Source: a bacterium
GTDB taxonomy: Bacteria > UBP15 > UBA6099 > JAJRTR01
Length of the DNA stretch: 64,000 bases
Assembly: GCA_024278215.1 (NCBI GenBank)
Contig: JAJRTR010000138.1
Span: forward strand, 3,747-67,746
Reading direction: 5' to 3'
In this document: positions 6,911 through 62,407 of the stretch, piece by piece
Layout of the letters: the number at the start of each line of letters is the position of its first letter
How positions within the stretch are numbered: the first letter of the stretch is position 1
The notes under the pieces: model-generated
The model's input: only the letters and a program-made list of their open reading frames with translations
Database searches by the model: none
What the model was told of the DNA's origin: nothing
Translations under genes and position numbers: made by a program

Positions 6911-9073
6911 TTATCTTTTCAGCTTGACTCTCTTGCGCCGCTGTCGGCTTCCGTATCCGTATCCTCCGTAGTAGTAATAATAGTAATAATCGGGACTGGA
7001 AGCTTCTATATTGTTCAGCGCGACACCGATGATGGGTGTCTTTGTGCTTTCGATCATGTATTTAACCTGGAGCGCTTCGTCCCTGTTGATACGACCGGAG
7101 TTGATGACGAAAAGGACCCCGTCGAGAATTTGCGAAAGGACAACAGCGTCGATAACGTGGATAGACGGCGGGCTGTCGAACATGATGATGTCCGCCTTTT
7201 TCTCGATGCATCTGAGGAATGCGAGCATTCTTTCGGATCGCAGAAGCTCGATCGAGTTTGCCGGAAGCGGCCCTGAAGGAATGATGCTGAGCCCCTTTAT
7301 CGTCGATGGCTGGATAAGCCTGTCGACGACAACTTCCATGAAAGATTCTTTCGGCAGCCGACCACTCACCGAAAGGTCCGATACGGCAATTTCCGCTTCG
7401 AGCTCGCCTGTGAGGATCGAGCTGATGCCGAGAGAATTGTCGACACCGAACATGCGGTGGAGCATGGGCCTGCGAAGGTCGGTATCTATTATGAGAACTT
7501 TCGTGCCTTCCTGCGCCATCGAAATAGCGAGATTGGCCAGGGTAGTGGATTTGCCTTCGTCGGATTTCGAACTTGTAACCAGGAGCGTTTTAATAGGCGG
7601 GTCGAGACAGAACAGTTGCGTGAAGAAACTCAAACGCCTGTATGCTTCCGCTATAGGAGATTTCAATGGAACGTCGGTAATCAACTTGTTGATCGTCTCC
7701 GCACTGTATGGGATGGAGCCGAGTACCGGCAGGTTAAGATAGTTCTTGACATCGTCGCTGGAGTGTATCGTTTCTTCCATCTCTTCGAGGAGGAACGCAA
7801 GCCCCAGGCCGAGAAGAAGACCGAGTGCCACGGCAATAATGATGTTCTTTTTCCTGTTGGGCTTAAATGGATTCTGAGGCACGATTGCTTTCTCGAAGAT
7901 TTTCACTTTTACATCTCGTTGCACCTTTTCGATCATCGCCTGCTGATGCTGCTGATAGAGCATGAGGAAAAGCTCTTCCGCGACCTCTTTTTCCCTGAGC
8001 AGCCTGTTGTATTCGTATTGCAACTCCGGGTACTTCAGCTGTTCCTGCTTAAGCCTGTCAATGATATTCGCCAACTGGGTTATTTTTGATTTGTCGAGGA
8101 CGATCTGGACATTCATCTCGACAATGGTATCGCGTTCCTTGAGATATCCGTCCTGGTTGACAAGTTTGTTATTTATCACATCGCTGATTTCCTGCTCGCT
8201 TTGTTTTCGCAGTTCCTTGAGTTGCTGGTCGATCTGTCTGACCAGTGGATGTCTGGCCTTATATTTTTCCATCAGTGAAGCGCGTTTCACCTCGAGGTCG
8301 ATGATGCTGGTCTCCATGTATTCAACTTTATTGTGAGTGTTTCTGTTGAGAAGCTGGGGGTCTTGCGCAAGTTTGATGGTCTGGTCCCGGAATGTGTTCT
8401 GGAGGTTGTCGAGCTTGATTTCAAGCTGTTTCAGGTCAATGCCCAGCTGCATTTTTTCGAGTTCGAGCGATGAGATTCGATCATTCCTGCTGATAACTTC
8501 CTGGTCGAGCAACACAATGCCGTGCTGTGTGTTGAATTCGAAGATGGCCTTTTCCTTTGAAGAGAGTACCCTCTCGGCGTTGTCCATCTGTTCTTTGATG
8601 TATTGCAGCGTGTCTTCCGCGGATTTCTCCATCAACTCGCGGCTGATCTCTTCGAAAGCTTCCGCATACTTATTGGCGACATCCGCGCATTCCCGGTTGT
8701 TGGAACCCTGCATTATGACTTCGATGATACCTGTGTCTTCATCGCTTCTTGCGATAATCTGATCGAGCAGTTTCACACCCGCTTTCTCAGGTTCTTTGCG
8801 ACCGAGTTTTATCGCCGCTCTCTCTGCGACCGGGATGCTCTTGAGCAGCCGGCGCTGGGTTTCAACTCCCAGCGGAGTGGATGAGCGCCGGGCTCCCTCG
8901 GTCAGCATAATCACAGTGGACGGTTGTTCGACAAGAATACGTGCCCTGGCCGAGTAAACCGGCTTTAAAATGATGAAATTTATCACTGCACTGGCCACTG
9001 CTGCTATCAGAACACAGAGCAGAATGACAAATTTCCGCTTCCAGATTATTGTTATATAATCTCTGATTTCCAA
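6911..9073 (-). CDS. wzc: Polysaccharide co-polymerase / BY tyrosine autokinase (Wzc-type fusion)
   Basis: Wzz-like N-terminus with two TM helices and coiled coil, Walker A SSKSDEGKST, IDTDLRRP, FDSPP, C-terminal Tyr cluster DYYYYYYYGGYGYG; start probably TTG 9073 (ORF open to 9154). Confidence 0.9.
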   Translation of the reverse strand: MEIRDYITIIWKRKFVILLCVLIAAVASAVINFIILKPVYSARARILVEQPSTVIMLTEGARRSSTPLGVETQRRLLKSIPVAERAAIKLGRKEPEKAGVKLLDQIIARSDEDTGIIEVIMQGSNNRECADVANKYAEAFEEISRELMEKSAEDTLQYIKEQMDNAERVLSSKEKAIFEFNTQHGIVLLDQEVISRNDRISSLELEKMQLGIDLKQLEIKLDNLQNTFRDQTIKLAQDPQLLNRNTHNKVEYMETSIIDLEVKRASLMEKYKARHPLVRQIDQQLKELRKQSEQEISDVINNKLVNQDGYLKERDTIVEMNVQIVLDKSKITQLANIIDRLKQEQLKYPELQYEYNRLLREKEVAEELFLMLYQQHQQAMIEKVQRDVKVKIFEKAIVPQNPFKPNRKKNIIIAVALGLLLGLGLAFLLEEMEETIHSSDDVKNYLNLPVLGSIPYSAETINKLITDVPLKSPIAEAYRRLSFFTQLFCLDPPIKTLLVTSSKSDEGKSTTLANLAISMAQEGTKVLIIDTDLRRPMLHRMFGVDNSLGISSILTGELEAEIAVSDLSVSGRLPKESFMEVVVDRLIQPSTIKGLSIIPSGPLPANSIELLRSERMLAFLRCIEKKADIIMFDSPPSIHVIDAVVLSQILDGVLFVINSGRINRDEALQVKYMIESTKTPIIGVALNNIEASSPDYYYYYYYGGYGYGSRQRRKRVKLKR

Positions 9074-9499
9074 GAATATCCACCGCCAGACACTCGACCC
9101 GGTTTGTGACTGCTGCACATCCGGGGAGTCAGGATAAACACTTGACCCATGCACGTGAGCCGCCGTCTATACTTCGGCCCGCTTTTGCTCTTTCGCGCCG
9201 GATTCAGACTGTTATGTTCCTGCTGCTCAGGAACCCATGTGTTTTCTTTTCGGGCTTGTCGATTTCGTCCGACGCGCCCATTTCTATATGTGTTATTTTC
9301 TTGTGCTTTTATAATATTCCCGAACTCGTGCTTTTTCGATATTTATGTGTAAATTTCGGGGTCATGACTGGAATTTACACTTTCACCGCCTTACCTTTCC
9401 ACCGGGAATTAACTCCCGACCGCGAAAACGACAATACATTGTCGCACTCCAGATTCAAGTCGATTATTATTAAATAAGCAGTATTTCATCTTAACCGCA

Positions 9500-48570: not shown

Positions 48571-49217
48571 GCTTCCCTCTCTCCGATAACCCGCTAATTG
48601 TAACCCGAACAACAAACGATATGCAATGCCGGGCTCAGGATGATAAAGAAATACTGAAAAGAGATCGGTGAACACCCCAGTTTCCACCATAATACTTTTC
48701 GCGACCAATCATTGTCACTGAATCGCCCTGAAGAATGCCTACACAACACAACCCGTTTCCACAGAGTAATGCCGCTTCCCTACAGAAACGCTGTTACTCT
48801 ACAGAAACAGTATTTCCATGCCGTAACGCCGCTTCCGCTTGGAATCAGTGGTTTTTGTACAGAACCGGCATTGCTGTTTAGAATCATACGTTTTTCTCTA
48901 CAACCAATCCGCTTCACAAAAAACACAACTCGCTTCTGGTCAGAAACTATTCGTTTTCGGACAGAAACACATATATAAAGAAAAGAAATAAGAAAAAGAA
49001 ATTGTTTTATGTATAGAGCTAATTGCAAAATTGTACGTTTTTTTGAAACATGTGCAGAATTTCAAGAGAACACGGCCCGAAATCAAAGGGCAAATTCCAG
49101 TCATGACCCGAAATTAACTATCTGTATTCGCACAAGATATTAGCCGCTTCGCTATTTGGTGTGAGTAGAATAATTATAGTGCGCTGACGGTGAAACTGAC
49201 AATTTGGCAACGACAAC

Positions 49218-49592
49218 TGTAGCGTTTACTTCAATTCCACCATCCTCTGGCAATCCTTTAAAATTGCCGGGAAATGGTAATATTGTGGCAAACCCGGCTC
49301 GCAAGTTATGGAGGTTCCGTATGTGCGCCGAAGTTCTTAAACCGGATTTCTCACAAAGAAATCCGGAAAATCGGGATAACGCATGTTCTACTACGTTGCG
49401 GCGGCGATTCTGGATCGGTCACACACCTGTATTTTGCGCAAGAGGCTGGCCGGCTGCTTCCTCACCACTCACTTGCCGCGCCATGTATTACAGGTATCCT
49501 CCCGATTATTGGCCCGCATTGGTGAAATAAGCGGGTTAAGGTGAACGCAGAGCGTTCAGTCCCTGCGTTCCGGGTCGGAACCCCGGAACGAG
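49218..49592 (+). repeat. Long dispersed repeat family C (with REP-like hairpins), carrying a nested MITE B
   Basis: Outside the insertion it is collinear with the reverse complement of 53235-53407. Confidence 0.75.
49337..49539 (+). mobile_element. MITE family B, full length
   Basis: Imperfect TIRs ACCGGATTTCTCAC / GTGAAATAAGCGGG bounded by TTAA on both sides; inverted copy at 51046-51251. Confidence 0.82.
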
Positions 49593-49693
49593 AAAAACTC
49601 ATTTTACCCAACACGATTCAGCGGAGAGCCAGATATTATTTGTAATACACCCTGAAGTGCGAAATTGCAATAAGGCTGTGTGTTTTTACAGCA

Positions 49694-49727: not shown

Positions 49728-49728
49728 G

Positions 49729-49813
49729 TGCCGGTGAAGGGACTCGAACCCCCACGTGCGCAAGGCACGGCAGATTTTGAGTCTACTGCGTCTACCAATT
49801 CCGCCACACCGGC
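49729..49813 (-). tRNA. tRNA-Leu (CAA)
   Basis: GCCGGTGTGGCGGAATTGGTAGACGCAGTAGACTCAAAATCTGC...GGGGGTTCGAGTCCCTTCACCGGCA; long variable arm; CCA not encoded. Confidence 0.97.
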
Positions 49814-50326: not shown

Positions 50327-50482
50327 ACATACTGGACCTTAGTCGCAATACTGTTCAATAAAGTTAAAACCGTCCCGATCCCTATAGCCGCCCCCTGATA
50401 TCCTGTCCCCTGGATTCCGGGGCTCGGCCCGGAACGGCAAGCTTAAGTGAACGGTATTGACCTTAGTCGGGGAGGTTATTAT

Positions 50483-51049
50483 ATGTGTGCAGCAGATGTC
50501 AATATTTGCGCAAGTTGCGGTAAATTGAACGCCGATAGGAATAAATTCTGTTCGAAGTGCGGAACTTTGCTTACGAGAACCGGACAAATGGTAAAGGGAA
50601 AAGATGTTCCTGAATCGGCAGTGATTTGCAGGGCATGTGGTTTCGAAAATAAACCGGGCTCACGGACATGCCAGTCGTGCCAGGTTCCTTTCGCGGACGG
50701 TTATCTAGTTTCCGAAAGCAGAACCCATGCTCACGTGACTATCGAGTTTGCGGAACTGGATTACGAGAATCACGACAGTTTCAGGAAACTTATAAAAAGA
50801 ATAAACAGGTCCAGAATCGTCGTTGACATGTCGAAAGTTGTGCGGCTGGACAGTGTCGGTATCGGAGCAATCGTGTCAGTGACAAATCCAATGTACGGGA
50901 TGGGGAAAGAGAAACAATTCAGGTTCTATGGTATGTCTACAGAGGTTCTTGACGCCTTGAGGGCTATGTCGGTGGACAAAGTGCTCGATATCTATCCATC
51001 ATATGAAATTGCTGTACAGGATTGGAACGGGAGCCTACGAAAAGATTAA
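50483..51049 (+). CDS. Double zinc-ribbon plus STAS (anti-sigma factor antagonist) protein
   Basis: Four CxxC pairs, then VDMSKVVRLDSVGIGAIV with the conserved Ser; GGAGG RBS before ATG 50483. Confidence 0.85.
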   Translation: MCAADVNICASCGKLNADRNKFCSKCGTLLTRTGQMVKGKDVPESAVICRACGFENKPGSRTCQSCQVPFADGYLVSESRTHAHVTIEFAELDYENHDSFRKLIKRINRSRIVVDMSKVVRLDSVGIGAIVSVTNPMYGMGKEKQFRFYGMSTEVLDALRAMSVDKVLDIYPSYEIAVQDWNGSLRKD

Positions 51050-51251
51050 CCCGCATATTTCACACAATGCTGGCCGAAAATTGGGAGAATGCCGTTATAA
51101 TACAAGGTGCGGCAAGTGAGTGGTGATGTAGCCGCCGGTCGGCCTCTTGCGCAAAATGCAGGTATGTGACCGATCCCGCTTCGCCGCCGCAACGCAGTAG
51201 AACAGGCGTTCTACCGATTGTTCGGATTTCTTTTTGAGAAATCCGGGTTAA
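51046..51251 (-). mobile_element. MITE family B, full length
   Basis: Reverse complement is collinear with 49337-49539; TTAA at both ends. Confidence 0.82.
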
Positions 51252-51554: not shown

Positions 51555-52037
51555 TCAGTCAATATCCAGCAACTCCTGCAATTTCAGCAATTGCCGACGG
51601 TTGTTCTCTTGCTGATCATCTGCGGAGACAATTGGCTTCTTCTTTTTTGATTTTGCTTTTTTCTCTGCATCGAGATCAACTAACCGGGGAATGTCAATTC
51701 GGTCATTTTCCAGGATAGGAAGCGGTAGAACCTGATATATCGTGCGATTGCTGAGTTCATCTTTACTAACGGCAATGACCCGCCTTTTTACAAGTCTTTT
51801 TCTGGCTTTTATCAGAGAACTTGGCCCGATCTTAAGAACTCTTGTTATTTCACGGCTCGAATGACATGAACATCCTGTCTGCATGTCTCCAACAGTAACA
51901 AGATAAAAGTATAACAACAGCTCATGCTGCGTCATATCGTCCCAGAACCACTCAACACGCTTGTCAAACCAGGCAAATGGCCTGGTTTCCTGCATGCTTC
52001 GCACTTTTCCCGGTTCCGGAGGATCGAGCCTTCTCAC
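51555..52037 (-). CDS. Winged-helix DNA-binding protein (replication-initiator N-terminal-like)
   Basis: FAWFD, ELLLYFYLV, SSREITRVLKIGPSSLIKARKRLVKRRVI helix-turn-helix-wing, IYQVL; GTG start with GGAG RBS. Confidence 0.7.
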   Translation of the reverse strand: MRRLDPPEPGKVRSMQETRPFAWFDKRVEWFWDDMTQHELLLYFYLVTVGDMQTGCSCHSSREITRVLKIGPSSLIKARKRLVKRRVIAVSKDELSNRTIYQVLPLPILENDRIDIPRLVDLDAEKKAKSKKKKPIVSADDQQENNRRQLLKLQELLDID

Positions 52038-52055
52038 AAGAGTACTCTCCTCAAA

Positions 52056-52757
52056 TTATAAAGTGCCGCCGCTTCTTACTCCTGTAGATGACTCCATAAA
52101 CATACGTATTCTTCGCAGTTCTTCGTCAATCCCGAGCCGTTTCTCTCTTCCTTCTATTAGCTTCTTCTTCTGGAATTCTATTATTCTTTCTTTTTCTTCC
52201 AGTTTAATGTGTGTCTTCTCAAGGTCTTCGTCCAGCTTTGCATTCTCTTGTCGCAACTGCTCTATTTCTTTCTCCAACTCGTATATTCTTCTCGCGCTTT
52301 TCTCGATTCTGCTATCTCTTTCTCTTATCTCGTCATTAATTGCTTTTAATTCAATCTTTGCCGTTTCAAGCTCTTTTCTGCTGTTTTCTATATATTGCTT
52401 AAATACATCAATCTGTCTGTTGTTTTCTTCAAATATATTGAGTTCTGTAATTTTATCTTTAATTTTCTCCGCCAACTTGTCCAACAGCTCTTCCTTATTT
52501 GTTCCTGCGGACAAGCTCTCTATTTCATGCGGGTCATTTGATGCAAGATATTTATAAACCCTGTCAAGTGTCATCCCTTCCTGAATCAGCTCGACCGTTC
52601 TCCTGAAAACTTCTTTCGCCTCAGGCAGATACCGTCTCCTTCGCCCTCTTCCTGCCGATGGTAGAAACTCGCTGATACGATTTCTATAATATCTCAGGTT
52701 AGACTCGGGAACATCAAGCTCTTGTGCAATTTCTTTAAGGGTTAATAACTCCTGCAT
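52056..52757 (-). CDS. MerR-type HTH protein with long C-terminal coiled coil (RacA-like architecture)
   Basis: LTLKEIAQELDVPESNLRYY...GRGRRRRY HTH, followed by about 120 aa of heptads. Confidence 0.85.
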   Translation of the reverse strand: MQELLTLKEIAQELDVPESNLRYYRNRISEFLPSAGRGRRRRYLPEAKEVFRRTVELIQEGMTLDRVYKYLASNDPHEIESLSAGTNKEELLDKLAEKIKDKITELNIFEENNRQIDVFKQYIENSRKELETAKIELKAINDEIRERDSRIEKSARRIYELEKEIEQLRQENAKLDEDLEKTHIKLEEKERIIEFQKKKLIEGREKRLGIDEELRRIRMFMESSTGVRSGGTL

Positions 52758-52813
52758 ATCCCCAACACATTACTCTTAATTATTGTTGTTTCTGCTTATG
52801 CAAAGATGGTGTT

Positions 52814-53008
52814 TCAGAACCTGAAAACTCCCTGGTAAGGCTCACCCTTCTTAGCCATATACCATTCCTCGAAATCATTCTTTTCAACTCGATATGATTT
52901 CCCTATCTTCACTGCCGGGAGCTCCCTTGTTTTACACCACCTCTGCACTGTCACTTTATTGACTTTCAATATTTCCGCGATTTCTTTGACAGTGTAGAAC
53001 TCTTCCAT
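52814..53008 (-). CDS. Excisionase/BldC-like small HTH protein
   Basis: FYTVKEIAEILKVNKVTVQRWCKTRELPAVKIGKSYRV, 64 aa, GAGG RBS. Confidence 0.9.
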   Translation of the reverse strand: MEEFYTVKEIAEILKVNKVTVQRWCKTRELPAVKIGKSYRVEKNDFEEWYMAKKGEPYQGVFRF

Positions 53009-53054
53009 TATACACTATACCTCATTATACAGTATTTTAATATACCTTATGGGT

Positions 53055-53084
53055 AATATAAAGCACAATGCAGGGCTTTGTCAA
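53055..53084 (-). promoter_or_regulatory. Candidate sigma70 promoter of the three-HTH operon
   Basis: Minus strand TTGACA (53084-53079), 18 bp, TATATT (53060-53055). Confidence 0.55.
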
Positions 53085-53234
53085 TATTAAACGAATAAAA
53101 ATCAATGTGACCCATTATGGCTACGTTATACACACATTAAGCGCACTTTAACGATCTTTGGCGCATTTAGCATTATATCACATGGTTTAGGGCCAATACT
53201 GATTCACGTGTAAAAAGTCACGGATGACATTTCA

Positions 53235-53407
53235 TCGTTCCGGGGCTCCGGCCAGAGGAACACAGGGACTGAACCCTCTGCATTCACCATAAAAAACTTC
53301 GGTGTTCAAGGAAAACTCATAGCTATCGAGACAAGTTTACCACAATACTCACCTTTCCCGGCAATTTCAAAGGATTGCCGGACGGTGGATTTGTGGAAAA
53401 CTCTACA
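53235..53407 (-). repeat. Long dispersed repeat family C, empty-site copy
   Basis: Minus strand GGCAATCCTTTGAAATTGCCGGGAA...CCGAAGTTTTTTATGGTGAATGCAGAGGGTTCAGTCCCTG matches 49218-49592 without the MITE. Confidence 0.75.
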
Positions 53408-53609
53408 TAGGTCTTTGCAGACATTTGGTTATCCTCCGGCACGCTACATTTCTCTACCCACACCAAATAGCGAAGAGGCAGATAAACCATGATTCGTGTG
53501 TAATAAGTCATTTTCAAGAAAAATGTTTTATCAAAATCGGTCAAGATGCTTTAAAATGCTGAACGCACGTTCGTTATAGTTTATCATTGTTGGTTGACAT
53601 TTGTCGTCT

Positions 53610-53793
53610 TCGGCTTATCACACACGAATCAAACCATGTGTGCCGTGCTCGAACCGCATTTGTTCGGGCACGTCCATCAGCGCCGATAAAACTGTAGATC
53701 GCATGTAGATGATACGCTGCATCACACGTTTGAATCCGCTTACGTTATGTTGGGGAGCATCGGATCCATGCGGCTCAACACACAATTCAGTTT
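53610..53793 (+). ncRNA. Candidate structured RNA or ssDNA element, unassigned
   Basis: Four hairpins and two short closing helices; each hairpin has a G-U pair that works only on the + strand. Confidence 0.35.
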
Positions 53794-54274
53794 CCGTAAC
53801 AACACGCCTGCTCGCCTATCTTATCATAATATCATTTATCACAACTAATGATACAGCTTTCAAAAAAGCTGAATATTCAAACATCTGACCTGCAACAATC
53901 AGATGAAACAGTCGCTGAATATATTCTTTTTAATATTTTTCAGACAAAGCTGCGTAAAATATCAAAAAACGGACTATTAGATACCGATAAAATAATAATA
54001 CAAAATACATAAAATACATAAAATACATATTTATGAATTTACAAATTTATAAAAATATTTATCCGTAAAACTTTCTGTTTATCATATATAGAAATAAAAC
54101 ATATACATTATTATACATTATTTGGTCAATTTGTGAATAATTTCACAATGTAATATATGAGAAATAACTGACTTAGATGTCTTCAGTAAGTTTAGTTTAC
54201 TGTATAAATTATCATTGCATGGAGCAGTATTTGAGTATATATATTACCAGTGCAATGCAGAAATTGAAGATAAA

Positions 54275-55213
54275 TCATACGTTATTTTTGTTAATATTAT
54301 TGCCCAATAATTTATCAGACGGATTATGCTTTTTGTGCTCATCCGATATGAATTTTTGTGATGTCTTGAGGTAAATTGACGTTGTTGCTAAATCCTCATG
54401 ACCAAGCGTCTGTCTGACCGCCTCAATATGGCATCCTTCTTCGACCAGATGTGATGCTATGGAATGGCGAAGAAGATGAGGATAAATATGTGACATTATG
54501 CCGACCTGTTTTCCATACTTCGCAACCATATACTGAATCATCCTGACAGACATCTGCTTTTTGTGACGAGAAAGAAAAACAAAAGCCTTCGGAAAAATAG
54601 TTTCCGGCAAAAGACTTTCTCGCTCAATAAAGTAATCAAGCAGTGCATTGCGACATGAGTCCGTCAATGGAACTACTCTTTCTTTTGCCCCCTTTCCCTT
54701 TATTAAAAGGGTGTTTTTTTCGAATGACAGGTTTTCTATCGTTAGCGAGATCAATTCGCTGACTCTGATCCCGGTACTGTATAAAAGGATCAAAACAGCC
54801 CTGTTTCTTAAATAGTCTTTTTCAGAGGGGGCAGGAGCGTTAAGAAGCTGTCTGATCTCGTCCTGGGAAAGTGATGCCGGCAATTTCTTAGCAACCTTCG
54901 GCATATCAATTCCTTCAGAAGGATTGCCGGCAATGACGTTTTCTCTTTGGAGAAATCGAAAAAACGCTTTACATGAGGCGATTTTTCTTGATACTGTCTT
55001 ATTTGAATTGCCTGCTTTCAAACATTCATCTATCCAGGACTCAATAATTTTCTTCTGGAAAAAATCAGTTGTATTGCCGTTGCAATCCGGCTTCTTGTGA
55101 ATAAAGTCTATGAGTTTCAATACATCAAACTCATAAGCCCGGATTGTCTTTTCAGAATACCCCTTTCTTCTAAGGTGAGCCTTGAAATCCGATGTCAATT
55201 CAGAATAGTCCAT
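54275..55213 (-). CDS. xerC: Tyrosine recombinase, XerC/XerD family
   Basis: YSEKTIRAY, KAFFRFL, LYSTGIRVSEL (R), KGKGAKER (K), PHLLRHS (HxxR), LGH, TTSIY (Y); start ATG 55213; XerC versus XerD is uncertain. Confidence 0.9.
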   Translation of the reverse strand: MDYSELTSDFKAHLRRKGYSEKTIRAYEFDVLKLIDFIHKKPDCNGNTTDFFQKKIIESWIDECLKAGNSNKTVSRKIASCKAFFRFLQRENVIAGNPSEGIDMPKVAKKLPASLSQDEIRQLLNAPAPSEKDYLRNRAVLILLYSTGIRVSELISLTIENLSFEKNTLLIKGKGAKERVVPLTDSCRNALLDYFIERESLLPETIFPKAFVFLSRHKKQMSVRMIQYMVAKYGKQVGIMSHIYPHLLRHSIASHLVEEGCHIEAVRQTLGHEDLATTSIYLKTSQKFISDEHKKHNPSDKLLGNNINKNNV

Positions 55214-56031
55214 GTTTTTATTATATATTATCCTTTTTCTTATGTAAATCAACGGTTTAATATATGAAGTTCGCCCTTCTATCCTTATTGCTCTCAGGTT
55301 GTGTACATGCTGTGTTTATACAAATATCCCAGTAAATATGCCAATATTTTGTTCATGCCCGTTGCTTTTAATACCGGAATTGCGTTGCTGTTTTGGAAAT
55401 AAGCAACAATGTTATCTTCTATTTATATGCACTGAATGAATATTTCTGCATCCGACACCGAAATTCAGTATTGTTCACTAAATATATAGCTAAAGCAAGG
55501 CAAACAACAAGGTTGCCTTTGAGGGTTTATGAGTCAAAAAAACGCACGATCTGCAGCTCAACATTATATCTTAACGCAATAACATTACCAGGAAGCCATA
55601 AATGTATAATATGCTTATATCCCATACTGAATATGGAATATATAATATGTGTATGTGAGTTAGAATCACATTGAATTACATGTTGTTGAAACGGAACCGG
55701 AACAACACTGTTGAATAATCAGCAGTGATATGTGAAAGAAGGGATCATTCTGTTTTTTTATGGAAGCTGTATATATTTTAATTCTGCGCAATATTGGCAT
55801 ACCAACATTGCGTAGAAAACAGCCGGTAAATATTTGACTGATGGCGGATTGTCTCATGAAACAGCTTGATGTACATTTCTTGTTGCGGTATTGTGTAAAC
55901 AAACGACTATTGGTCGTGTTGTTAGTTTATGACTGTAATTAGCTCAGTCTTCATTGCACTTTTTCGCGAATACTTCCTTTATTAATATGCTTTTCAGGAT
56001 TTTCGTCCAGATACAAACAGGATGTTTCGAG

Positions 56032-56061
56032 TACCCTACCCTACCCTACCCTACCCTACCC
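56032..56061. repeat. (TACCC)6 pentanucleotide tandem repeat
   Basis: Six exact units read directly from the sequence. Confidence 0.95.
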
Positions 56062-56285
56062 CATTATAATATTTTGATGATAAGGCGTTGTTTTCTGCTG
56101 GTTTTTGTCTGATTTAATAATTTTCTACGTGCGAATCACACCATCTGAAAAAGGATATTATGCTGCAAATATGTCTCATCTTATATCGCTTTACTATGTT
56201 TTTGGGCTCAACTGTTTGTTGTACCAAAATATGAAATGGCATTTCTGAAATAACATGATTCCTCCGATATTGGTATATTTATATA

Positions 56286-56301
56286 TGTTTCACGTGAAAC
56301 A
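56286..56301. promoter_or_regulatory. parS site (ParB loading site)
   Basis: Perfect palindrome TGTTTCACGTGAAACA, identical to the widespread chromosomal parS consensus, in intergenic DNA. Confidence 0.88.
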
Positions 56302-56700: not shown

Positions 56701-57972
56701 ATGATAGATAAGTACGAGATCGACGGGATCGAACTGATATTCGGCAAGGAAGGGCGCCGGGACTGGGGGAAATATACTTTTCCGGTGCTATACGGTCTCC
56801 CGGTGAAAGCAAAATGGAAGCGATACGAGTTTGACTTCAACCTCAAGGGGAATCTCAAACGGATATGCGGGCGCCCCCCCGCATGGCCGAACCAACTTGA
56901 ACAACTCAAACGCACGGAAGGCAACAACTACATATATTACGGTATTTTCGGCTATGAAGCCACGTATCACATGATACACAACTATTATGTGCCGTTCACA
57001 GGCAAGAGCGACCCGCCTGTTTTCAACGAGGCGCCGTTCGAGGAAGAGCATGTCGCACGCGCACTTAAATCTTTTGACGAGTTTATTGAACATGCGGGCG
57101 ATATCGCCGACCGGGCACAGGAGGGGACGCCGGCACAAGATTTTCTCAGGCGGATCCGTGGAAGAAACAGGCGATTTCTTGCCGAAGAGGCAGAAAAGCT
57201 CCATGACATCATCGGCGGATGTGTGCCTGTAATGCCTCCGGATACGCTCGAGGTTGATTATGAGGTCATTCCCCTGTTTATTATGGATGGTTGCCTGTAC
57301 AGGTGTAAATTCTGCTCATTCAAAGGGAATACCATGTTTAATAAACGTGACAAATCGGATGTCGAGCGCCAGATACCGTTATTAAAGCACTTTTATGGAG
57401 AGGATCTGGTTAATTACAATTCAATTGTTCTTGGGCAGAACGATGCCCTTGCAGCCGGAAAGGATATGATCGAATTCGCTGCAATGAAGGCATATACAGG
57501 CCTCAATATTGAAAATTCATATCACTACGGTGCAAATCTTTTTCTTTTCGGCAGTGTCGCGTCACTACTCAACATTGACCACAAGCTTTTCGATACATTA
57601 AACACGTCCCCGTATAATACATACATAAACATCGGACTTGAATCGCCCGACCAGGAAACACTCGATTATCTGGGCAAGCCGATACGCGCTTCGGACATAG
57701 AAACCGCGTTCGATCTGGCATGTTGTGTGAACAAAGAATATGAACGGATACGAATGACATGTAATTTTGTTCTTGGACGCAGCCTTCCTGCGGGGCATAT
57801 CGAATCGGTCAAGAAACTGCTCTCTTCCGCCCCCGGCTACAGTGGGCGGGATACCGTGTACCTCTCACCGCTTATGAACGATTGTGAGAGGGATCAGATA
57901 AGAGATGAACTACAGACTATCAAGTTGGTATCCCGTCCGGATGTCTATCTTTACCTGGTTCAGCAGCTTTAG
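56701..57972 (+). CDS. Radical SAM protein with N-terminal extension
   Basis: GCLYRCKFC (CxxxCxxC), LGQNDAL, INIGLES. Confidence 0.88.
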   Translation: MIDKYEIDGIELIFGKEGRRDWGKYTFPVLYGLPVKAKWKRYEFDFNLKGNLKRICGRPPAWPNQLEQLKRTEGNNYIYYGIFGYEATYHMIHNYYVPFTGKSDPPVFNEAPFEEEHVARALKSFDEFIEHAGDIADRAQEGTPAQDFLRRIRGRNRRFLAEEAEKLHDIIGGCVPVMPPDTLEVDYEVIPLFIMDGCLYRCKFCSFKGNTMFNKRDKSDVERQIPLLKHFYGEDLVNYNSIVLGQNDALAAGKDMIEFAAMKAYTGLNIENSYHYGANLFLFGSVASLLNIDHKLFDTLNTSPYNTYINIGLESPDQETLDYLGKPIRASDIETAFDLACCVNKEYERIRMTCNFVLGRSLPAGHIESVKKLLSSAPGYSGRDTVYLSPLMNDCERDQIRDELQTIKLVSRPDVYLYLVQQL

Positions 57973-62071: not shown

Positions 62072-62407
62072 GTGAGCACACTATTCATGAATGTAAAGAA
62101 AAAAGGACAATACTGTATTCTTAATCTGAACAACGATTCCAGCCTGCTCCAAGTATCAGGCAGGATACGGGAAACCCTTAATATTCTTCATGATGCCGGC
62201 CACAAAAAAATATGTGTCGATCTCACAAAAGCACCCATCATCGACAGTAGTGTCATTGGTACACTGGTCAGTTACCACGAGGTTTTAAAAAATCAAGGCG
62301 GCGAACTCATCATAATAAATAGCCCTAATCCCGCTCTTGAAGCCCTCTTTAGAATGCAACTCCATAAAGTCCTTCGTATCATAAACAGTGAAGACGAACT
62401 GGATTAA
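62072..62407 (+). CDS. STAS domain anti-sigma factor antagonist
   Basis: ICVDLTKAPIIDSSVIGTLV, GGELII, LHKVLRI; start may instead be ATG 62087. Confidence 0.88.
   Translation: MSTLFMNVKKKGQYCILNLNNDSSLLQVSGRIRETLNILHDAGHKKICVDLTKAPIIDSSVIGTLVSYHEVLKNQGGELIIINSPNPALEALFRMQLHKVLRIINSEDELD

Follow-up and report, generated by a model that had tools for sequence, protein, structure and literature searches.

Proteins that join a MerR-type winged helix-turn-helix to a coiled coil, namely RacA of Bacillus subtilis, Par of the Staphylococcus aureus plasmid pSK1, and RocS of Streptococcus pneumoniae, form a class that acts in DNA anchoring and partition (available part of PMC11500499). BldC forms cooperative multimers on direct repeats (PMC5859096, in the part available), and the integrative element SGI1 carries mimics of the IncC parS that are recognized by a ParB encoded elsewhere (from a portion of PMC10954446). 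Here, we describe a locus in which an Xer-type recombinase (Xer3) and three helix-turn-helix (HTH) proteins, termed HTH64, MerRCC, and wHTH (winged HTH), are encoded beside a perfect parS; a parS or near-parS adjoins the cluster at 10 of 12 distinct loci of the lineage. The locus lies in a window of 64,000 nucleotides, positions 3747-67746 of the 126.7-kb contig C112 in assembly G000 (4,548,219 bases, 207 contigs, 95% complete), from an uncultured phylum represented in the genome collection by one order with 13 species genomes. In a literature search, no paper was found that reports linkage between a parS of the chromosome and a gene cluster for an Xer-type recombinase and HTH proteins. As a first-pass annotation of the same DNA had proposed, the four genes are co-oriented on the minus strand and their products all act on DNA, judging by open reading frame (ORF) coordinates and matches to Pfam and NCBIfam (HTH_36 via orthologs in the case of wHTH). 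In window coordinates, the locus comprises the following features.

51555-52037, minus strand: wHTH, an ORF of 160 amino acids (aa)
52056-52757, minus strand: MerRCC, an ORF of 233 aa
52814-53008, minus strand: HTH64, an ORF of 64 aa and the first gene of a three-gene operon
53055-53084, minus strand: predicted sigma-70 promoter of the HTH64-MerRCC-wHTH operon, TTGACA, 18 nt, TATATT, then a GAGG ribosome-binding site (RBS)
53009-54274, no strand assigned: AT-rich spacer between Xer3 and the operon, partly made of dispersed repeats (53194-53672), with a three-mismatch parS-like site at 53200-53215
54275-55252, minus strand: Xer3, an ORF of 325 aa with a probable true start at ATG 55213
55253-56285, no strand assigned: AT-rich, gene-free spacer between Xer3 and parS, with (TACCC)6 at 56032-56061 and a promoter-like site at 55248-55220
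56286-56301, no strand assigned: parS, TGTTTCACGTGAAACA, an exact palindrome and putative ParB-binding centromere-type site

Each component has a described counterpart from which it also departs. MerRCC resembles RacA, Par, and RocS in its three-part build (a MerR-type winged helix, a coiled coil, and a short C-terminus) and in being encoded beside a centromere-type site. Unlike them, it shows no detectable sequence homology to the class and no match to DUF536 in a Pfam scan, it has been lost in one relative (G001), and it is cooperonic with two HTH proteins beside a recombinase, which is true of none of the three known proteins. HTH64 resembles BldC and Xis excisionases in being a stand-alone MerR-like winged helix of 64 aa without dimerization or effector domains, with the fold of BldC; it differs in being restricted to the phylum and in standing beside a simple Xer-type recombinase, a partner with which Xis was not seen paired in the available part of one survey (PMC8138268). 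Xer3 has the CB+CAT build, the intact catalytic set, and the high similarity to Xer models expected of the resolvases XerC/XerD, XerA, XerH, and XerS. In contrast to these, it falls below the XerC and XerD cut-offs, represents a third paralog, has no adjacent dif-like site, and, as far as this metagenome-assembled genome (MAG) shows, adjoins parS rather than a terminus. The set as a whole recalls SGI1, in which a recombinase, an excisionase fold, and a replication-type winged helix also occur together with a partition site. However, the cluster is without att, mobility, or cargo functions and without a Rep catalytic domain, its parS is of the chromosomal consensus, and it appears to be vertically inherited across the phylum.

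Linkage of the cluster to parS

The 16-mer TGTTTCACGTGAAACA at 56286-56301, 1.0 kb upstream of Xer3, matches the parS palindrome TGTTNCACGTGAAACA exactly, as the first-pass annotation had reported. It is the sole site with two or fewer mismatches in the 4.55-Mb assembly, "sole" referring to the assembly and not necessarily to the organism; sites with three mismatches number 26. The window holds three parS matches, a count reached by none of 100 shuffled sequences. Genomes of relatives carry one to three sites each with at most one mismatch, and the site by the cluster was located as follows.

G000: parS 1.0 kb upstream of Xer3
G001: parS 4.1 kb upstream of Xer3
G006: parS 2.2 kb upstream of Xer3
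G008: parS 2.3 kb upstream of Xer3
G003: parS 0.5 kb downstream of wHTH
G002: parS 75 nt upstream of Xer3, a two-mismatch site, TGTTTCACATGAAACT

With up to two mismatches allowed, parS thus adjoins the cluster in all six cluster-bearing genomes, and at 10 of 12 distinct loci it lies 75 nt to 6.1 kb away. Given one to three sites per 3.6-4.9 Mb, adjacency by chance would be expected at about 1% per genome. Conservation is limited to the 16-mer itself, the flanks of parS being unrelated between genomes.

Six relatives (G002, G003, G006, G007, G008, and G010) carry another, canonical parS 6-16 kb from dnaA. In all four cases checked (G003:C59, G006:C1, G007:C6, and G008:C13; family f3, 9-16 kb from dnaA), this dnaA-proximal site stands beside a tandem pair of parB paralogs, whose products are 31-38% identical to the ParB encoded in the window, and in G002, G003, G006, and G008 it is found on a different contig from the cluster. 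Neither the tandem parB pair nor its parS was found in the G000 assembly. From this sequence comparison, the cluster parS is an extra site and not the canonical origin site. The proximity to an origin suggested by the first-pass annotation was not demonstrated, dnaA being on another contig, more than 55 kb from the cluster, the dnaA-proximal parS of relatives lying elsewhere, and GC skew being uninformative, with no turn across the 126.7-kb contig.

Conservation and selection of the cluster

The order Xer3-HTH64-MerRCC-wHTH was the same in five relatives from three families by DNA search and tblastn, G001 being without MerRCC, and in every metagenome locus long enough to display it. By profile and protein searches, wHTH occurs as a single copy in 7 of the 13 genomes. 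Orthologs of HTH64 and Xer3, also single, share one set of 6 of the 13, and G005 has a fragment of Xer3; the cluster is present in five of the six genomes that are at least 90% complete. Genomes without it (G004, G007, G009, G010, G011, and G012) are 67-92% complete, and two of these absences are assembly breaks: the 3.9-kb contig G012:C337 carries parS and a downstream flank orthologous to that of G003 and ends where the cluster would be expected, and G007:C48 starts inside the upstream flank. Scanning metagenomes with the HTH64 alignment recovered 46 loci, 17 of them orthologous (at least 77% identity), although several duplicate the species genomes. Of these 17, 13 have Xer3 upstream, 15 have MerRCC downstream, and 14 have wHTH, with all misses at contig ends.

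Identity to the G000 proteins across these relatives was 47-54% for Xer3, 37-48% for MerRCC, and 42-51% for wHTH, compared with 77-86% for HTH64 across three families. In a species-level pair (L012/L034), the ratio of nonsynonymous to synonymous change (pN/pS) was 0.21 for Xer3, 0.00 for HTH64, 0.20 for MerRCC, and 0.03 for wHTH, and 0.11 for a flanking PD40 gene. The locus is collinear in species- and genus-level pairs apart from repeat indels, including L044, L045, and L043, and the Xer3 tree is compatible with the host families. Judged from these comparisons, all four genes are under purifying selection and the cluster is a vertically inherited unit. No protein-coding gene is a neighbor common to all loci: the PD40 gene lies downstream in three of five relatives, a CDP-alcohol transferase gene upstream in two of five, and a CoA-transferase gene is shared with G001 only. 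The signs by which the first-pass annotation expected an ordinary decayed integrative element to betray itself, namely genes that are not co-conserved, patchiness among close relatives, and bounding att repeats, were not seen. The fixed order, the single copy, and the linkage with the recombinase and parS are kept across the lineage, patchiness within a genus corresponds to contig ends, and there are no att repeats.

As to the sources of these loci, L044 derives from a 92.7-kb metagenome contig, and the orthologs P0017 and P0178 are carried on one contig of 1.63 Mb.

Properties of the four encoded proteins

Xer3 matches Phage_integrase (2e-41) and Phage_int_SAM_1 (7e-14) in Pfam, giving a simple CB+CAT build without an arm-binding domain. 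It scores 255.3 bits against the NCBIfam XerC model TIGR02224 (cut-off 335.15) and 254 bits against the XerD model TIGR02225 (cut-off 329.6), below both thresholds, and 221.8 bits against XerA_Arch NF040815, for which the cut-off is 220. The recombinase had been described as intact and proves so by its residues, R163, K187/K190, H259, R262, H285, and Y294 (R, K, H-x-x-R, H, and Y) being invariant in six of six orthologs, alignment with which also makes ATG 55213 the likelier start. Two other Xer paralogs in G000 (on C123 and C206) have orthologs in 13 of 13 genomes and hence are taken as the canonical XerC/D. In the tree, Xer3 forms a long branch sister to these two, its clade being separated from G000 XerC/D with support of 100/99 and including the three family-f3 genomes as a group. 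Xer3 is accordingly placed, by sequence and tree, as a third Xer paralog beside canonical XerC/D. A role in resolution, one of the options raised by the first-pass annotation, is unlikely given the canonical pair in every genome and the failure to find a dif-like site. Palindromes with 11-nt arms were also sought at the locus, and none was common between genomes.

A promoter-like sequence (TTTACA, 17 nt, TATAAT; 11/12) is present at 55220-55248 and ends 7 nt before ATG 55213. Because it ends so close to the probable start, the Xer3 mRNA may be leaderless. In one metagenome locus (L046:746-1355), the Xer3 ortholog aligns as three pieces in differing frames, from a frameshift or assembly errors, and the three HTH genes are intact.

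HTH64 matches HTH_17 (8e-18) and passes the excisionase model TIGR01764 (2e-14; 53.7 bits, cut-off 28.8). Orthologs at 72% identity or more are confined to the phylum. Its structural model, with a predicted local distance difference test (pLDDT) score of 83.8, is a beta-alpha-alpha-beta-beta-alpha winged helix. In Foldseek, the top matches to this model were BldC structures 6ama (TM 0.67/0.76; 26-28% identity) and 6amk, followed by the DNA-binding domain (DBD) of RacA, the Xis of mycobacteriophage Pukovnik, lambda Xis, and the DBD of pSK1 Par, in agreement with its earlier designation as Xis/BldC-like. No phased repeats were found near HTH64. Upstream of the gene, the TTGACA hexamer is invariant in six of six genomes, with a spacing of 17-18 nt and a conserved TAtAaT -10 element and GAGG RBS (alignment A3); the window promoter scores 11/12 in the promoter scan. 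Since this conserved promoter and RBS precede HTH64, the three HTH genes appear to form an operon separate from Xer3.

MerRCC consists of an N-terminal winged helix (approximately residues 1-75, with residues 6-72 matching MerR_1 at 8e-10 in Pfam), a coiled coil predicted for residues ~80-215 from coiled-coil-type matches (SMC 8e-7; keratin coil 1e-2), and a conserved C-terminal helix (alignment A4). Across 44 clusters, the N domain shows 62-84% conservation. The first-pass annotation had likened MerRCC to RacA, and the combination of a MerR-type winged helix and a coiled coil found in RacA, pSK1 Par, and RocS is indeed present, a likeness of architecture only. No obvious membrane-targeting amphipathic helix was found in MerRCC. 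In the ESM Atlas, searched with orthologs P0160 and P0030 for MerRCC and wHTH, the look-alikes of MerRCC were uncharacterized MerR_1 proteins with helical tails from several phyla.

wHTH of the window matched no family itself, although five of six orthologs matched HTH_36, the best at 1e-8, and it matched a PHROG replication initiation protein at 0.004. Its model (pLDDT 84.4) shows an extended winged helix over residues 26-103, joined by a basic, disordered linker to a C-terminal helix at residues 139-158. Fold matches were tied among MarR regulators, RepA_N plasmid initiators, and the N domain of primosomal DnaB. A search with wHTH returned 285 hits that fell off sharply after about 45 ortholog clusters, and outside the phylum just short HTH_36 relatives were recovered. 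Two of these distant relatives have a readable context, and both are in mobile DNA (L023:8001-13225 and L022:7962-13028). One lies beside three tandem tyrosine recombinases (a recombinase-in-trio) and a CAP12/Pycsar TIR gene, and the other beside IS21 IstA/IstB, an HTH_17 gene, and a TrfA-type replication protein. ESM Atlas look-alikes of wHTH were mostly viral.

Spacers, repeats, and chromosomal surroundings

The AT-richness and the two gene-free spacers seen by the first-pass annotation hold up, GC content being 35-41% over 52-57 kb compared with 51.4% genome-wide and none of nine ORFs of at least 50 aa inside the two spacers having a Pfam match. In relatives, Xer3 and the operon are 0.4-1.4 kb apart and the AT-rich DNA upstream of Xer3 extends over 0.07-3.5 kb, with sequence conservation in neither spacer. 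Spacer divergence in the L012/L034 pair was 7.7-10.5%, against 6-11% at synonymous sites, with the Xer3-operon spacer at 7.7%, a near-neutral rate. Roughly 480 nt of this spacer in the window (53194-53672) consists of dispersed repeats with copies on contigs C165, C55, C105, C77, C43, and C133.

The genome is rich in MITE-like repeats. One of ~200 nt, seen at 49337-49540 and 51098-51251, is present genome-wide in at least 40 copies, from 360 first-look candidates, and one of its copies is nested in a lower-copy repeat of ~260 nt (49138-49602) that is also present, inverted, in the Xer3-HTH64 spacer (53224-53484). Similar repeat families in relatives break assemblies near the locus. The (TACCC)6 tract between Xer3 and parS is a perfect pentanucleotide microsatellite. 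A 32-nt inverted pair (49817-49848/55589-55620; 81%) was considered as a candidate recombination site and dropped, since its 26 bits equaled those of shuffled controls.

With dxs, uppS, ilvD, clpB, and fabH among its genes, the contig is ordinary chromosome, and the flanks of the cluster are housekeeping in nature. Within 49-58 kb, scans against Pfam, NCBIfam, PHROG, and PADLOC-type families detected no gene for phage, conjugation, or cargo functions, in line with the earlier description. On one side, the locus is flanked by a 423-aa radical-SAM protein (56701-57972) that matches no NCBIfam family, and on the other by a protein with a double zinc-ribbon and a STAS domain (50447-51049); a second STAS protein is encoded at 62072-62407. 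The only Rfam match at the gathering threshold in the whole window was a tRNA-Leu.

The window also encodes the best ParB of the genome (5292-6179). This gene has no ParA partner and lies directly downstream of a Wzc-type BY-kinase gene (6911-9154), in a polysaccharide cluster with the order pfkB, Wzc, ParB, O-antigen-ligase-like gene, and glycosyltransferase in five of five genomes examined (including L076-L079); the Wzc-ParB gap is 21-89 nt in family f3. A link among ParB, RocS, and the BY-kinase CpsD exists in pneumococcus (10.1101/359943 and PMC4574921, in the parts available). The Wzc-ParB arrangement is reminiscent of the CpsD-ParB link, an analogy that offers a lead and not evidence.

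Origin and possible roles of the cluster

An integrative element is the most likely origin of the cluster, because of its content of an integrase, an excisionase fold, and a Rep-N-like protein, its AT-rich DNA, and the mobile affinities of wHTH. It would have been immobilized for a long time and maintained, as argued by its single copy, fixed order, host-like phylogeny, purifying selection, lack of att, and housekeeping flanks. In this scenario, an ancestral element carrying int, xis-like, and rep-N-like genes would have carried a host-type parS to ride on the ParABS of its host, as SGI1 does, then lost its mobility and been kept in the chromosome. The parS would persist either as something brought along by the element or through selection that holds the module inside the ParB zone.

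We tentatively favor, at a little under an even chance, the view that the module has been domesticated and is bound up with a ParB-loading site, where the DNA around it would be acted on by HTH64 and MerRCC and some site by Xer3. Here, parS would be a working loading site for ParB, so that the module would always lie inside the ParB zone. The consensus sigma-70 promoter would drive HTH64, MerRCC, and wHTH; HTH64 would multimerize on the flanking AT-rich DNA; MerRCC would bridge or tether that DNA through its coiled coil; and Xer3, from its own promoter, would recombine some site. The likeness to RacA, pSK1 Par, RocS, and BldC makes it plausible that the module would help to organize the chromosome.

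Several observations weigh against this domesticated module. All genomes used are fragmented MAGs, and in two metagenome loci, L040 and L045, the short flanks contain no parS. Most loci that have parS carry it upstream of Xer3, but in L036 and the G003 type it lies downstream of wHTH; because the side differs by lineage, the position of parS is not fixed within the unit and adjacency could be mere inheritance. A recombination site for Xer3 was not found, the strict motif CATAA-N6-8-TTATG occurring 0 times within 49-57 kb compared with 24 genome-wide, and no 10-mer in the spacers was common to four or more genomes. The absence of the MerRCC gene from G001 indicates that it is dispensable there. 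Profile searches of the Protein Data Bank (PDB) did not find the RacA/Par chains 5i41, 5i44, and 8csh, either with the A4 profile at E<=1 or with the N-terminal 80 aa at E<=10, and the HTH64 profile reached BldC only at E 0.34-0.48 (BldC and RacA together at 0.1-0.5), which is nonsignificant. A scan of viral contigs found no relatives of wHTH and MerRCC. Finally, in the available part of the survey cited above, Xis proteins accompany arm-binding integrases only and not simple Xer-type recombinases (PMC8138268), and for this reason HTH64 may not be a classical recombination directionality factor (RDF) for Xer3.

A serious, if somewhat doubtful, alternative is that the genes and the site are unrelated neighbors. 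The HTH proteins would then be ordinary lineage-specific regulators or nucleoid proteins, Xer3 a host recombinase with another task such as local inversion or a gene switch, and parS adjacent by shared descent of a stable region. The shifting side and distance of parS (75 nt to 6.1 kb), the neutral drift of the spacers, and the lack of any common motif besides parS and the promoters would all fit, as would the persistence of some flank synteny, seen in the PD40 gene of three of five relatives and the collinearity of L044, L045, and L043. HTH64, extremely conserved and preceded by a consensus promoter, likewise fits a global regulator such as BldC. It is harder to see, if the neighbors are unrelated, why parS has been kept by the cluster in three families without any universal protein-coding neighbor, when adjacency by chance is so rare, and the joint presence of int, xis-like, and rep-N-like genes in AT-rich DNA resembles one acquired unit.

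The same gene content, the recombinase intact in six of six orthologs, the HTH_36/Rep-N-like and excisionase folds, and the AT-rich DNA could instead belong to a resident element that is still active, and perhaps replicative, with rare excision by Xer3 and HTH64, replication aided by wHTH, and a parS that hijacks ParABS as in SGI1, for which parS mimicry by an integrative element is precedented (in the available part of PMC10954446). We consider this quite improbable. Direct repeats of att type in the flanks scored at best 20-26 bits, equal to the shuffled maximum, at seven of seven loci. No tRNA target was apparent, none being found near the cluster in five of five relatives, and the 3' end of the tRNA-Leu in the window (49728-49813) faces away from the cluster. 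The single copy in syntenic places, the host-like phylogeny, and the collinearity at species level also speak against continuing mobility, and for replication there are no iterons and no Rep catalytic domain, the model of the 160-aa wHTH containing no helicase-loading or nicking domain.

We hold it very improbable that the locus is an origin of replication or a secondary-replicon core, derived from a domesticated plasmid, in which wHTH would be the initiator and the spacers the origin; the first-pass annotation had partly understood the locus in this way. The AT-rich, gene-free spacers do adjoin parS, and RepA_N initiators and the N domain of DnaB/DnaD are among the tied fold matches of wHTH. 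Moreover, four single-mismatch copies of the DnaA-box motif TTATCCACA fall within 1.5 kb at 53.0-54.5 kb (one or no mismatch allowed). However, with a genome maximum of five, this count is not above that of other contigs, so replication control gains no DnaA-box enrichment. Iterons or tandem arrays were absent here and in three relatives, the spacers are conserved neither in sequence nor in length and diverge at about the synonymous rate, and the contig is ordinary chromosome without a GC-skew turn. Least credible of all is part of an antiphage defense island, MADS-like or recombinase-controlled, for although HTH64 matches the MADS1 HTH (NF047737 7e-13; PADLOC mad1 7e-9), the 48.6 bits are below the NCBIfam cut-off of 80 and reflect a generic HTH_17 fold match, PADLOC found only this mad1 HTH match and no MADS partner gene or other defense family in the cluster or its neighbors, and no defense genes were found in the flanks of the five annotated relatives.

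Significance

Returning to the domesticated module, a bolder extension, which we regard as unlikely, is that the phylum may use a noncanonical centromere apparatus. It would consist of parS, the MerRCC tether, HTH64, and Xer3, together with the ParB paralog cooperonic with a Wzc BY-kinase, whose ATPase is ParA/MinD-like, in place of ParA. Such an apparatus would correspond, in a deep-branching Gram-negative lineage, to the CpsD-ParB-RocS link of pneumococcus between envelope polysaccharide synthesis and chromosome segregation. XerD is reported to act on SMC in B. subtilis; Xer3 would add a component of its own that might, for instance, resolve or reset centromere topology or act on SMC.

Even read conservatively, the locus adds a third Xer clade, three families of DNA-binding proteins that are specific to the phylum and under strong constraint, and a parS that persists over phylum-scale time beside one gene cluster while its surroundings change. 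The target proteins are small and soluble, which makes binding-site mapping and in vitro recombination practical without culture. If the link is functional, it would add a recombinase, a BldC-type multimerizer, and a RacA/RocS-type tether to the components of bacterial centromeres, and it would illustrate cleanly how the core of a mobile element can be domesticated to maintain the chromosome, here in a phylum without a cultured member.

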